A stretch of 64,000 bases of DNA from contig NC_043008.1 of NCBI RefSeq assembly GCF_006345805.1, forward strand, positions 62,434,001 through 62,498,000, read 5' to 3'. This stretch comes from Octopus sinensis. Its lineage: Eukaryota. The position numbers and the translations under genes were made by a program. Positions 2,612 to 63,375 of the stretch are shown in pieces. The first letter of the stretch is position 1. Every line of letters begins with the position of its first letter. The notes under the pieces are model-generated. The model saw nothing but the letters and a program-made list of their open reading frames with translations, did not search any database and was not told where the DNA came from.

Positions 2612-2915
2612 AGTTTATGGCATAGTGGTTAAGAGTGCGGGCTACAAGCCCCAAGATTCCAAGTTCGATTCCAGGCAGTGAGCTGAATAATAATAATAAT
2701 AATAATACAAATAATAATAAAAATAATAATAATAATAAAAATAATAATAATAACAACAACAACAACAACAACATCAAAAATACCTTAGGAATAAGAACCC
2801 AGTTTCGAAATTTCCCCAAGACACCTGATGAAGGCTGGAGAGTATATCAATTGAAACGTTGTGTTAACAACAAACAAGATGAGGACAAGTATCTGTCGAA
2901 TGTAAATAATGTATT
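2612..2915 (+). mobile_element. tRNA-headed SINE-like element with internal (AAT)n and a hammerhead-like motif
   Basis: A box tggcatagtgg, B box gttcgattcc, then (AAT/AAC)n, then gacac-CTGATGA...GAAAC-GTT-gtgtt at 2820-2865. A partial inverted copy of the 3' part lies near 32375-32515. Confidence 0.7.
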
Positions 2916-3386
2916 TATTCCCATTTACTTACTTCACTTATTCAAAGATTCAGTACCAAAATCTAAAAAAGATTTCATCTATGATGGAATTTGATTGAAT
3001 CATTATTCTTTCCAGATCCCCAGAGTGTGATATGTCTCACATCACCTTAACATTACAGGAAATGCAAGCTAAATGTGCCACTTCAATACAATCATCTGAC
3101 CTTTGAGAAATATCAGTTCAATAATCCTTGAATCACACACACTGTCATTTTGAAATAAAGCAAATTACACTGGATAATCTGCCCTGGATGTATCAGATTA
3201 AAAAAAAAAACAAGGATGACCAGAGCTGGGATTATTTAACAATAGCAAGAACAGGTGCAGGCATGGGTGTAAGGTCAAGAAGCTTTTTACAACCATGGAG
3301 ATTCAGGTTCAATGCTAATACATGGTTTCTTGGGTAAGTGGTTTCTACTCTAGCCCATGCGAAACAATGCCCAAAAAGTGAATTCT

Positions 3387-3980
3387 TATCATCATCATCA
3401 TCATCATCATTTAACGTCCGCTTTCCATGCTAGCATGGGTTGGACGATTTGACTGAGGACTGGCGAACCAGATGGCAGCGCTAGGCTCCAATCTAATCTG
3501 GCAGAGTTTCTACAGCTGGATGTCCTTCCTAACGCCAACCACTCCGAGAGTGTAGTGGGTGCTTTTACATGCCACCAGTACGATGGCCAGTCTGGTGGTA
3601 CTGGCAACAACCACGCTTGAAATGGTGTTTTTACATGCCACCTGCACAGGAGTCAGTCCAGCGGCACTGGCAAAAACCTCACTCGAATGTTTTTCACATG
3701 CCAGTAAGGCGACGCTGGTAACAATCACGGTCAAATGGTGCTTTTTACGTGCCACCAGCACAGAAGCCAGACAGCTGCTCTGTCAGTCATTGAATTTGGT
3801 TCAATTTCAATTTCATTTGCCCCAACAGGTCTTCGCAAGCAGAGTTTAGTGTCCAATGAAGGGAGATTGGCATGGGTGCCAGTGGTCGAATTCGGTTCGA
3901 TTTCAAATTCAGTTTCAATTTCACTTACCTGAACATGTCTTCGCACCAAAGTTTTGTGTCCAAAGAAGGAAAGGTATGCA
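3387..3980 (-). mobile_element. RTE LINE 3' UTR copy with (GAT)n tail
   Basis: Homologous to 22010-22520, which is contiguous with an RTE ORF; contains tgccacc/gtaaaaagcacc subrepeats. Confidence 0.8.
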
Positions 3981-4952
3981 GGAAATGTGCTTCAGAAAAC
4001 ATTAGGCCAACAAAGATTTTTTTTCCTTTTTTTATTTTAGTTTTAGCCAGTATTTTTTTTTCCTGCTAATGTTTTTCTAATTTATAAAAATAAATAATTC
4101 ACTTGTTTCTTTTACATAGCATCTTTTCTCAAAAAAAGAAAAAACCAAAATAATAATTAATCATATTGGGTAATATATTATTTTAATGCTGAACAAGATA
4201 TGAAATATCTGATTATACCATTCCAATTAAAATGAAACTAGATTAGTATTTCAAACAAATGGTTGTTCTTTTGGGGAACATGACAAAATAGTCTTCATTA
4301 CATTCTAGTTGCTTCTCAGGAGATGAAAACAAATTTTCATTTCCTTGAATAAGCTGAGTTTCAAATGAGACTGAATATTTTAATTAAAATTAAGCTACAA
4401 TTATATTTGCAACAAAATGGCAATCTTTCATAAAGTACAATAAAGTAATTTCCTTGTTCTACCTGTTGGTTACCTCTTAGAAGCTGAGAGTAATTTTTCT
4501 TACACCTGAGCATGATTTTATCAGCTTCTAATTTCTATTTTTGTTTTAACTCAAGACCATTATTAAGTCTTGAATGCAGCTCCTTGGTGCATGCCTGGAG
4601 GGTAAGCACGGCAGCTACAACTCCTACTACTACTACTACTACTACCATCACCACCACTACCATCCCTGCTGCTACCACCATCAGTACTAATGGCTACTGC
4701 CACTGCTGCTGCCTTCACCACCACTGCCGGCAGAGACACCACCACCACCACTGCCACCACCATCCCCGATCCCAATACCACTGCCCACTACAACAGCCAC
4801 TGCAATTTCACCTGTTACTCCTTTGATATCCATAGGCTGGCTCAAGCTATGCAATAACCATTTTACTATTTTACCATTTCTACTCGCTATTTCATTTCCA
4901 AGGCATCAACTCATCAATCTGACTTGGATTTTTAAAATAATTCAAGAAAAAT

Positions 4953-5760
4953 AGGTGCAGGCATGGCTGTGTTGTAAGAAAGCAGTGAGCTGGCAGAAAC
5001 GTTAGCATGCCAGGTGAAATGCTTAGCAGTATTATGTCTGCCGTTACATTCTGAGTTCAAATTCTGCCGAGGTCGACTTTGCCTCTCATCCTTTCGGGGT
5101 CGATTAATGAAGTACCAGTTATGCACTGGGTTCGATATAATTGATTTAATCCATTTGTCTGTGTTTGTTTGTTCTCTCTGTATTTAGCCCCTTGTGGGTT
5201 GTAAAGAAATAGGTATTTCATTTGCTGTTATGTTCTGAGTTCAAATTCCGCTGAGGTCGACTTTGCCTTTCATACATTTAGGGTTGATAAATTAAGTACC
5301 AGTCACACACTGGGGTTGATATAATCAATTTAATCCTTTTGTCTGTCCTTGTTTGTCCCCTCCTTGTTTAACCCCTTGTGGGCAATAAAGAAATAAGAAG
5401 CTTGCTTTCAATCCACATAGTTCCAGGCTCAGTCCTTCGGTGTGGCACCTTTGGCAAGTGTCTTCTACAAAAGCCTTGGACTGACCAAAGCCTTACGAAT
5501 TGATCTGAGTCTGAATAAAGCTCGCATGTGTGTGTGTGTGTGATTGTGTTTGTATTTGTCCCCCACCAACATTTGATAACTGGTGGTGGTGTGTTTACAT
5601 CCCTGTAACTTAACAGTTTAGCAAAAGAGATCAATAGAATAAATTAAAAAAAACGGAAAAGTACTGCAATCAATTCATACAACTAAAGATTCTTCAAGGT
5701 GTTGCCCCAGCCTGGCCGCAGTTAAATGACTGAAACATGGAAAACATAAAAGATAAAAGA
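4953..5760 (+). mobile_element. SINE family A interrupted near its head by a dimeric family B SINE (about 4982-5398)
   Basis: A head ggtgcaggcatggctgtgttgtaagaa breaks off, two B units (gaggtcgactttgcctttcatcctttcggggtcgat) follow, and A resumes at gaagcttgctttc through to its gactgaaac tail. Confidence 0.8.
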
Positions 5761-6011
5761 AACTTTACTAGCATGTCAGAATCATGGCAAATGTTGCTTC
5801 ACAGCACACAGGAATCAAAGACATTTTTGGCATCACACAATAATTAACAAGCATTATAGGCCACAGAGAATTCTGTTCTTCCATGCAGGAACTATTTTAA
5901 CCATCTGTTATCAAACTTCTGCTAAGCTTTTGCACAAAGTCTTTAATTACATTCAAGTGTTCTGGGCCATTTAGGAGTTAAACATCTTAGTCTTTGGTAT
6001 TACACAATAAG

Positions 6012-61369: not shown

Positions 61370-61800
61370 TATCCTCCTCCTCATCATCATCATCATCACC
61401 ACCACCACAACCACCACCACCACCACCATTATCATCATCATCTCCATCTCCATCTTCCTCCTTGGTGTTGTCATAACTGTAGCCATTGACATCATTGTCT
61501 TCCTCTTCCCCCTCCTCCTCTTCTACTTCTTCCTCCTCCTCCACCTCTTCCCCTTCTTCTTCCTCCTTCTCCTCCTCTTCCTCCTCCGCCTCCTCTTCTT
61601 CTTCTTCCTCCTTCTCTTCCTCTTCCGCCTCCTCCTCTTCTTCCTTCCCTCCTCCCCCTCTCCTTCCTCCTCCCATTCTCCCCTCTTCTTCTTCCTCCCC
61701 CCTCATCCCCATCCCCTTAATCTCCAACCCCCATCTCTGTCATCCCCATCATCTCCATCCCCCATCATCCCCATCCCCATCCCCCTATCTCTATCTTTAT
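61370..61800. repeat. (CAT)/(CAC)/(TCC/TCT) low-complexity polypyrimidine tract
   Basis: Direct reading. Confidence 0.92.
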
Positions 61801-62639
61801 GTTCCCTCTTAAAAGAATCTATCTGCATATATGTCCTATAACTTAGCAGTCTGAGCAAGAGTGAGTGACAAAATAAGTACCATTTTTTTTTTTTTTTAAA
61901 TCACGACCGGAATATAAAAAAAGAAAACAACCAACATTCACAATACTGCTCCAGCATAGCCACAATCTAATGATTGAACTGTGTAAAACAACAAAAGTGT
62001 TGTATATGAGGTTTCCTATATTGCATGGCTTCTATCATGATAAGATATTATATTATAGCTAAAACAAATGAGAAATGGTAAACTGCCAGTTTAAGAAAGA
62101 ATATTCTTTCAGGTTTGGTCAGTGGAGCAATGAATGAAAAATCTGTTTCAGTTAACCTTTCTAGCACGTTCTATATTTTAGTTCAATGATGTTTTATAAC
62201 ATGCTACTGCGATACCGCCATCGTTTCTGCTAAATATAAGAAAAATATTTAATTTACTGTTCCCCAATCCAGTTTCTATTTGCAGTCAGTTTGTGAACAA
62301 TCAATGGTTTTAGAGTAATCATTTCTATGAATTGTCAGTGAGGTTAGCACCTTACACTGATTAAATTATTAATTCTCAGTTTCCACAGAAAGAAATTTAT
62401 ATTGACAGGAAAGACAAGAAAAAAAAGAATAATAATGATAATAATAATAATAATAATAATAATAATAATAATAATAATAATAGTAAAACATACGAAAAAA
62501 TAAAAGATAAAATAAAGAAGAGGGAGAAAAAATTTTTGAAAATGTTCTGGTAGGCAGGAGACCTTGTCAGAATTTTCTCTTTTACATGATGTTATTAATG
62601 TATACCTGCTTCTATAATGGTTATCTGCAGTTTCAGCAT

Positions 62640-62835
62640 ATATGCATGTATGTATGTATGTATGTATGTATGTATGTATGTATGTATGTATGTATGTATG
62701 TATGTATGTATGTATGTATGCATGTATGTATGTATATGTATATGTGTATGTATGTATGTATGTATGTATGTACGTACGTACGTACGTACATATGTATGTA
62801 TGCATGTATGCATGTATGTATGTATGTATGTATAT
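62640..62835. repeat. (TATG)n microsatellite
   Basis: Direct reading; complementary (CATA)n at about 31760-31850. Confidence 0.95.
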
Positions 62836-63199
62836 ATGGATGTATATATTTGTATGCAATTATATTCATGTGTATATTTATGGAGATTCCATATACACAC
62901 ACATATGTACATGCGCACACAAGGCACAGACATAGCTCGGTGGTTCAGAAGCTGGCTTTGCTGCCATATGGTTTCGTGTTCAATCTCGGGACATGGCATT
63001 TTGTGTATCTTCTAGTATGACTCCAAAACAATAAAGATCTTATGAATGAATTTCAGAGACAGAAATTGTGTGGAAGTTTGTTGTGTGATGGTGTGTGTGT
63101 GTATATCATCATCATCATCGTTTAACGTCCGTTTTCCATGCTAGCATGGGTATATATATATATATATATATATATATATATATATATATATATATATAT

Positions 63200-63375
63200 A
63201 GGGAGAATTCCCGAAAAAAATCAAAAGACGAAGACAGGTGGTGTAGAAAACAAACAGATGTATTAGTATAACGCTCGGGAATTGAAAAAGTCTTTTACGT
63301 TTCGAGCCTACACTCTTCCATAGAAAGGAACACAGAAAGAAACAAGGAGAGAAAAAAATATGTGTAGAGGCTACA
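63200..63375 (-). mobile_element. Family D element, HHR-like motif at 63292-63327
   Basis: cttt-CTATGGA-a-gagt-gtag-gctc-GAAAC-GTA-aaag; abuts (TA)n. Confidence 0.75.

Follow-up and report, generated by a model that had tools for sequence, protein, structure and literature searches.

We find that the hammerhead ribozyme motifs in a 64-kb stretch of the Octopus sinensis genome (NC_043008.1, positions 62,434,001 to 62,498,000; the window, meaning this whole stretch of 64,000 nucleotides) are very probably the residue of locally dense insertions of Penelope-like elements (PLEs) and of smaller units associated with them. Thirteen motif copies are truncated 3' ends from four PLE families, and four further sites lie in units without an open reading frame (ORF) that were likely mobilised by PLEs. 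One half motif comes from a non-circularly permuted (SGC) hammerhead, and five sites have no assignment, two of these being unconfirmed as well. The motifs are real and above chance, yet they form a mixture of sources rather than one system. Hammerheads at PLE ends and retrozymes in molluscs are already known. New here are the variants and an unusually clean genomic footprint, which makes the retrozyme mechanism testable.

Hammerhead motifs and PLE 3' ends

An earlier note on this DNA had listed hammerhead-type motifs by position. We re-read every one of the 23 listed sites at its coordinates, counting 14570/15475 as one, and found the positions accurate. A strict type I descriptor recovered two sites in the window, 38588 and 41173. 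A relaxed scored descriptor, composed after the motifs had been seen and tolerating a single change in the core, a swapped 3-8 pair and one mismatch in a stem, gave 13, 8 and 6 matches at scores of at least 6, 8 and 9, respectively. The shuffled control that the note had proposed places the window above background: at a score of at least 9, 2 × 40 block-wise local dinucleotide shuffles of the window averaged 0.7 matches with a maximum of 3, and none of the 80 equalled the observed count of six. Note that one of these six, 21961, was absent from the earlier list and resembles background. Rfam returned no match over the whole window at the gathering threshold, and below it just microsatellite noise among the matches listed (150 of 340). 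The best Rfam site was 38588 (Hammerhead_1, 32.2 bits against a gathering score of 34, E = 1e-6 in a 161-nt search); 41173 and 40895 were invisible to the Rfam search.

Most sites had been described as complete or near complete. This holds for about six of the 23, where core and stems are intact or at family consensus (16120, 16933, 38588, 40895, 41173 and 58804). Decayed or truncated copies make up 2820, 11819, 14570/15475, 17003, 18141, 21376, 21765, 32435, 38204, 38912, 41762, 59097 and 63292, and other members of their families do carry a hammerhead motif. The CUGANGA and GAAA boxes and an NUH site occur in C-G-S order in members of families B, C, D, F, G and H, and family E has the same order with a compensated G3-C8 pair. 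All three stems (I to III) are able to pair, and all are retained at the six or so intact window sites. The tiny palindromic stem III reported for most motifs is found in A, A2, B, C, E, F and H; helix III is imperfect in D and G.

The 13 PLE ends comprise six copies of family A, three of B, two of C and two of E, which as listed sites amount to 12 of the 23 plus the 15475 duplicate. In this genome, all four families are joined to upstream reverse transcriptase (RT) and/or GIY-YIG reading frames; a search for autonomous PLEs sharing these termini, suggested by the note, was successful for each of them. These links were obtained by walking upstream, as motif-only queries for A and B gave short copies and no clear link. 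The ORF of B was missed by Neptune-type queries and surfaced once upstream regions were translated. The genome has many GIY-YIG ORFs, some of them intact at ~780 aa with RT, and tblastn found no PLE ORF remnant inside the window itself. Copies of A, B, C and E display 5' truncation with ragged 5' ends, an inverted 5' copy and a tail at one end. Pfam placed the GIY-YIG domain above its cut-off in E and below it in the A and B fragments; the family C fragment had no Pfam match, with a GIY-YIG/CCHH-like motif recognised by eye and RT by tblastn.

In 6 of 30 family A loci, the same strand carries RT, or a zinc-finger (Cx4CxxC) linker with GIY-YIG, upstream of the hammerhead motif, and these ORF remnants can be aligned unbroken through to it. 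Judged by these protein motifs, A is the putative 3' end of a Neptune-type PLE. All four of its separate window copies lie on the reverse strand: 11728–11907 (motif 11819–11854, core CUGUGGA with U at position 6), 18051–18250 (motif 18141–18176, GAAA mutated), 21669–21865 (motif 21765–21800, family core with one stem I mismatch) and 63201–63373 (motif 63292–63327, G5 mutated). Family A2 is a short, A-like 3' end situated between (TA)n tracts at 59022–59230 (+), with its motif at 59097–59131. Its layout is that of A, and its family core CCGAYGA (C at position 4) is further mutated in the window copy.

Family B carries GIY-YIG with CxCx5C, CxxC and CxH motifs ~1.1 kb upstream of the hammerhead (loci L307 and L313), the CxxC and CxH surrounding a conserved E and N, and RT with RWK farther upstream (L413). 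The copies are broken and the linker partly decayed. These features come from translating the three loci that share most sequence upstream; in two of them the motif lies in the same orientation. They match the definition of the Hydra clade, namely a CxCx5C linker, CxxC, CxH and RWK (PMC8557442), and B is accordingly assigned, by predicted protein motifs, to the 3' end of a Hydra-clade PLE. Its best window copy, 41043–41290 (+), holds an intact hammerhead at 41173–41220 and terminates in ATTTAACA followed by (CA)n. An old, decayed copy lies at 38152–38261 (−; motif 38204–38250, 70% identical to 41163–41280), and a fragment with a mutated G8 at 41742–41813 (+).

Of 30 loci retrieved with a Poseidon-type ORF end, 27 carry the family C hammerhead 100 to 300 nt downstream and on the same strand, which marks C, by its motifs, as the putative 3' end of a Poseidon-type PLE. 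The window copy at 2615–2913 (+) consists of a tRNA-like stretch, (AAT)n and a minimal type I hammerhead (2820–2865) with a damaged stem II; a second truncated copy, 32380–32462 (−), is 83% identical to 2834–2913 and has a decayed first core half. The 3' untranslated region (UTR) layout of a tRNA-like stretch and then (AAT)n (window 2615–2750; L331–L360) was matched by 30 of 30 ORF-linked loci, and ARAGORN called no tRNA gene in that stretch. Several C copies (L274, L298 and L300) also contain, upstream of the motif and within the (AAT)n, the C-terminus of a long interspersed nuclear element (LINE) with a restriction-like endonuclease, which we take to be R4/Dong-like.

Among 20 loci of family E, the ORF end was present in 17, the hammerhead in 11 and both in 9, ~1.5 kb apart. 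E is probably the 3' end of a Nematis PLE, the clade label resting on motifs. Its window copy, 16796–17005 (−), is a 3' end with tail and an intact hammerhead (16933–16983) of the G3-C8 core GUGAACA. A truncated inverted arm without tail follows at 17003–17135 (+) and includes the motif remnant at 17003.

ORF-less units and their insertion footprint

Four listed sites belong to three ORF-less units: D (16120), F (38588 and 38912) and H (58804), with unit lengths of 546, 353 and 353 nt. Together with the ORF-linked PLE ends, they bear out the link that the earlier note had drawn to Penelope-associated minimal hammerheads and retrozymes. The window holds 1.4 units of D at 15695–16466 (+), ending in (TA)n, with a hammerhead (16121–16196) that has a long stem II and, family-wide, an A.C first pair. 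Family F is represented by 1.4 units at 38420–38915 (−), with an intact canonical type I hammerhead (38588–38632) and a (TA)n end at its site 1, and by an inverted arm at 38909–39154 (+), which begins within the hammerhead (38912) and stops at site 2, 46 nt further on. The F hammerhead has a 6-bp stem I extended past a bulge, a 4-bp stem II and a palindromic helix III, and 53 of 61 F motifs were identical. Family H spans 1.15 units at 58610–59017 (+), with its hammerhead at 58804–58849 and a 55-nt terminal repeat at a 353-nt period.

D and F form tandem units with one type I hammerhead each and no ORF; H is known from its 1.15 window units and one relative. Open frames exceed neither 74 aa in D nor 66 aa in F, and none of the 23 insertion sites of D or the 24 of F had a contiguous ORF; the GIY-YIG matches in L190 and L208 sit outside the array end. 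Both D and F occur on many contigs at 97 to 100% identity, in arrays of 1 to more than 5 units with variable 5' starts. They are dispersed and recently mobile. H, compared with 380 loci (1.6 Mb) only, is collinear with F (alignment score 237, where 30 shuffles reached at most 163), and its relative in L323 has a compensated stem I. H is an older relative of F. The families had been called unrelated, which is correct in general and fails for this pair. Circular folding was more stable than in shuffled sequences for all three units (z = −6.4 for F, −3.1 for D and −9.4 for H). Contigs of four runs, which are not on record as RNA, covered D in four of four and F in three of four, head-to-tail joint included; the joint is also genomic, and the run contigs show no ends. 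We also observed an inverted fragment without a hammerhead, related to F and H, at 12054–12244. It has relatives in many loci, and the F superfamily therefore has further subfamilies.

The insertions share a strict footprint. In F, every one of 24 insertions has its 3' end at either of two fixed internal positions; in D, 21 of 23 do. These positions are 46 nt apart in F and ~112 nt apart in D, well away from the cleavage site. All but one of the 24 F insertions and all but two of the 23 D insertions run into (TA)n at the 3' end, against a background of 3 to 4%. In inverted arrays whose two arms both stop at fixed sites, the arms take different sites in 15 of 15 cases for F and 12 of 12 for D. 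The tally leaves out arrays with an odd end (one in F, two in D) and two more D arrays that the locus edge cuts short. The autonomous family E follows the same pattern, with a tail at one end only in 14 of 15 inverted pairs and at neither end in the other.

Both the one-end tail and the inverted 5' copy have been described for PLEs (PMC8557442). A PLE protein assayed in vitro was able to cut and to extend each of the two strands, and the tail was set by two internal sites at which it starts (PMC11167929). The arm ends of D and F are the PLE 'tail' footprint. The strict pairing of one site with each arm suggests a single coupled event, in which each strand is primed at a different start site. 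Furthermore, eight locus-private non-CpG substitutions were shared by all units of their array (six of these by units of both arms), and the D variant 62T was all-or-none at each of 12 loci. A single template per insertion is likely.

No homology of D, F or H to an autonomous PLE was found among the loci examined. A young Neptune-type family (L058, L067, L071–L073, L079 and L080), with ~780-aa ORFs, a U3-A8 hammerhead in the 3' UTR and many identical-scoring copies, is a candidate for the driver enzyme.

Mechanism and rival explanations

The reading that we favour can be set out as a sequence of steps. A PLE RT-endonuclease would cut both strands of an AT-rich target, and reverse transcription would begin inside the RNA at two fixed sites, one per strand, which would leave the arms head to head and a 'tail' at just one end. 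PLE complementary DNAs would mostly stop early, so that only the hammerhead-bearing end remains and then decays. The hammerheads of D, F and H probably cut multimeric transcripts as dimers via the palindromic helix III; the monomers would probably circularise, and a borrowed RT may read one template more than once round. The motif count is high because every truncated copy keeps its hammerhead ~70 to 200 nt from the priming end, and also because the region is rich in (TA)n.

Family membership, ORF links, unit lengths, fixed ends, (TA)n targets and a single haplotype in each array can be read directly from the genome, while cleavage, circular RNA and transcript ends are proposals from sequence. 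Several further observations also count against the favoured reading. We found 93 private changes confined to one unit (35 in F and 58 in D), seven private D changes in some units only and one locus in which the F variant 79A is mixed, changes that can be explained by later mutation or by mixed templates. Sequences of one locus diverge, on average, only slightly less than those of different loci (0.9% versus 1.0% in F, 1.7% versus 2.0% in D). A circular template is plausible, and a homogeneous linear multimer would yield the same arrays. Hammerhead cleavage was dispensable for insertion in vitro (PMC11167929). The genomic loci, as best matches to the queries, are biased to young, long copies, and the lack of homology between the ORF-less units and the autonomous PLEs belongs here as well. 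The labels Neptune (A), Poseidon (C) and Nematis (E) are our assumption, based on whether a linker is present and on RT motifs rather than on a tree. None of 30 A2 loci, all short, reached an ORF. Nor was an ORF link found for three other motifs, each compared with the same 380 loci only: the near-intact type I motif of family G (40895–40955, −; descriptor score 9.5), for which they contained no second copy; the family M remnant with inverted arms (21169–21631), which contains the 3' half of a long-stem-II hammerhead (21372–21402, −) and has a complete motif in L081; and a plausible M-like 3' half at 18360–18385 (−; GAAA CAGCUG UA; site 18363), for which they contained no relative.

Of the alternatives, one would make every motif a terminus of an autonomous PLE, that is, part of a pseudo-long terminal repeat (pLTR), with D, F and H as local satellite-type amplifications rather than separately mobile RNAs. 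It is true of the 13 PLE motif copies, and a preprint reports retrozymes as related to pLTRs and discusses local amplification (bioRxiv 10.64898/2026.07.22.740005). The earlier note had named such an outcome, with all copies truncated termini of already annotated PLEs, as fatal to its proposal. The window comes near to it (12 of 23 sites plus the duplicate), and the retrozyme units stand apart. The dispersal of near-identical D and F arrays over many contigs, in each of which the 5' starts are new, the 3' ends fixed and the arms inverted, speaks against local amplification, as does the absence of a contiguous ORF at their insertion sites, with the GIY-YIG matches in L190 and L208 beyond the array end. 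We regard this explanation as improbable.

Still less probable is the note's own proposal of one large non-autonomous ribozyme-bearing system. Three ORF-less units are indeed present. Most copies of A, A2 and E are ~200 nt long, and these families could partly spread without an ORF, A2 being linked to none in its 30 loci. The proposal is largely refuted by A, B, C and E, which run unbroken into the ORFs of four protein-coding PLE types and have ragged 5' ends, and retrozyme units account for 4 of the 23 sites. That all motifs are chance matches in AT-rich, microsatellite-dense DNA is scarcely credible: the relaxed descriptor does yield ~4 low-score matches per shuffled window, and 59552 and 40585 are unconfirmed, but no shuffle equalled the observed count, the families recur genome-wide with conserved motifs and compensatory changes, and family membership or an intact motif refutes chance for 20 of 23 sites, the others being 59552, 40585 and 18363.

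PLE insertion, with ORF-less units borrowing the enzyme, is the explanation that we retain. A bolder form of it, which we offer tentatively and judge to fall short of probable, has a dimeric PLE enzyme twin-priming one circular retrozyme RNA in one coupled event, together with ~100,000 hammerhead-family copies that include cleaving U6 (~30,000 Neptune-type ends) and G3-C8 cores and a non-circularly permuted type. If true, coupled twin priming would account for PLE tails and inverted repeats in general. The findings bear on the route of retrozymes into DNA. The young, near-identical D and F units, and autonomous PLEs that obey the same rule, offer defined RNA templates and candidate enzymes for the in vitro PLE assay that already exists.

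Variant cores, local density and known systems

Several families are fixed for changes in the catalytic core that may affect cutting. Family A has U6 in 77 of 79 matches, C in two and A in none (overlapping loci included), with free position 7 varying between subfamilies. The G3-C8 core of E was present in 52 of 59 motif matches, and the C4 of A2 in 34 of 38. The canonical A6 and U4 are not kept in A and A2, respectively. A natural A6C variant cleaves at <0.1 per minute, and C4 changes are known from viroids (both PMC3088659); an engineered C3G/G8C double mutant regains part of its cleavage (PMC11167929). Because of the slow A6C variant, A would be a ribozyme that is slow or needs assistance, or else a dead structure that has been retained. 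The literature and supplements searched contained no natural U6 or G3-C8 family, and Lunse et al. 2017 may hold such cores; that study reportedly describes variant PLE hammerheads cleaving as dimers. The family-fixed U6, G3-C8, C4 and SGC forms account for the undercounting of these motifs by standard scans (Rfam found none here), and they provide a test of whether PLE hammerheads must cleave at all.

The SGC form is that of family J, a 5'-truncated copy of which, at 16540–16792 (+), keeps the CUGANGA block only. In longer J copies, further ones being found by descriptor, the site block comes first, GAAA second and CUGANGA last, and stems I to III are accompanied by a fourth helix. Over 18 pairs in five longer sequences, 94% of cells were paired and five pairs had changed on both sides, against 43 to 60% paired in slid controls; this control is optimistic, since the structure was drawn from the same, related sequences. 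The half motif at 16558 fits type SGC (non-circularly permuted) rather than type I. Its treatment as a non-hammerhead tail was dropped on the S-G-C block order and the covariation in longer copies. No ORF match was found upstream in L411 or L412. Additional motifs of SGC type occur at L251:5462, L097:215 and in L062, among them a second subfamily whose stem I differs. Type I motifs that look intact and belong to families absent from the window lie at L037:8094–8138, L049:4657–4717, L088:8276–8322, L091:8577–8650, L098:3676–3719, L261:6928–6968 and L412:5405–5474. Two listed sites could not be confirmed as hammerheads: 59552 (59548–59605, −), whose first core half is unrecognisable, and the doubtful remnant at 40585 (40580–40640, −), which has no relative among the 380 loci.

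We estimated density from a 400-kb genome sample at fixed positions, extrapolated to 2.72 Gb. The relaxed descriptor gave 11 matches in the sample against 4.4 in shuffles, two in the 60 kb flanking the window and none in 50 kb farther along the contig. Homology to the window families gave 16, 5 and 3 matches, respectively. For the six families seen in the sample, the window has 13 matches, or seven after removal of the six query copies, against 2.6 expected. The window is therefore a local high of roughly 3- to 5-fold. Together, these families extrapolate to ~110,000 copies (Poisson range 62,000 to 177,000), most of them decayed, and family A alone to ~34,000 (11,000 to 79,000). PLE-type insertions are stacked end to end in two places, D, J and E at 15695–17135 and H and A2 at 58610–59230, each insertion lying in (TA)n beside the preceding one. 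Such stacking in neighbouring (TA)n partly explains the local density.

Inverted arms occur in the window with E, F and M. The 14570/15475 pair was ruled out as an inverted element pair, being one old A-like remnant held twice inside a 668-bp inverted duplication of host DNA (14359–15695), which is centred on (TA)n at ~15028. The duplication arms are 98.7% identical outside the microsatellite, about as young as retrozyme D, and the right arm meets the start of D with a 1-nt overlap. The duplication possibly arose through snap-back priming on cut, self-complementary (TA)n during D insertion. No 5'-abutting duplication of this kind was found at 21 other D and F loci. Other repeats in the window include LINE C-terminal remnants at 987–1682 (−) and 22523–22891 (−), presumably RTE-type, a 471-bp tandem duplication (98%; 12666–13635), a 160-bp trimer (27638–28119) and tandem dimers of short interspersed nuclear elements (5049–5395 and 6062–6429).

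PLEs on record for Octopus include Hydra-1_Obim, Naiad_Obim and Naiad_Ovul, and five short motifs from the window families were absent from the supplement that lists them. With the PLE clades Hydra, Neptune, Penelope/Poseidon and Nematis as described in PMC8557442, the window families share a C-terminal GIY-YIG, clade-typical linkers, 5' truncation, an inverted 5' copy, a one-end tail and a (TA)n target. Family B differs from Hydra-1_Obim, the Hydra element listed there for Octopus; it is a different Hydra family whose hammerhead differs from the listed one. The minimal PLE hammerheads of PMC4209133 resemble those here in their short stem I, the additional base ahead of stem II and the 2- to 6-nt palindromic helix III, and likewise occur mostly as single motifs in truncated PLEs, with opposite-strand pairs 100 to 700 bp apart. 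That account gives ~2,000 to 9,000 motifs per genome and a U3-A8 variant, whereas our ~110,000 copies were counted by homology and are not compared like for like, and the window families carry fixed U6, G3-C8 and C4 cores. Type-SGC hammerheads (PMC10085705) share with J the S-G-C order, stems I to III and a fourth helix that links stems I and II on their outer sides. They were found in metatranscriptomes and not in the genome of any known organism, whereas J lies in a dispersed animal repeat, with the C block only in the window copy.

Metazoan retrozymes (PMC7229834; bioRxiv 10.64898/2026.07.22.740005) resemble D, F and H in their ORF-less tandem units of a few hundred nucleotides, with one type I hammerhead each, in a GC content below 50%, strong self-pairing and co-occurrence with PLEs. 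The main text of PMC7229834 names neither Octopus nor cephalopods, and its supplements may list Octopus retrozymes. D, F and H are known here from the genome, and their circular form is predicted. The octopus arrays differ in their PLE-type inverted arms and in the strict rule of one tail per insertion, for which the portions of the two retrozyme sources available to us gave no counterpart. The closest mechanistic parallel is with Poseidon of Anolis carolinensis (PMC11167929), where the tail is likewise set by two internal RT start sites, cutting and extension occur on both strands, and the target is AT-rich. Its counterpart of the G3-C8 core is the engineered C3G/G8C, in which cleavage was partly restored. 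In that work, no strand difference in start sites was seen in bulk, and we infer different sites for the two strands from the octopus arrays. The use of ORF-less RNA in trans goes outside what the Poseidon work shows, and is proposed here.

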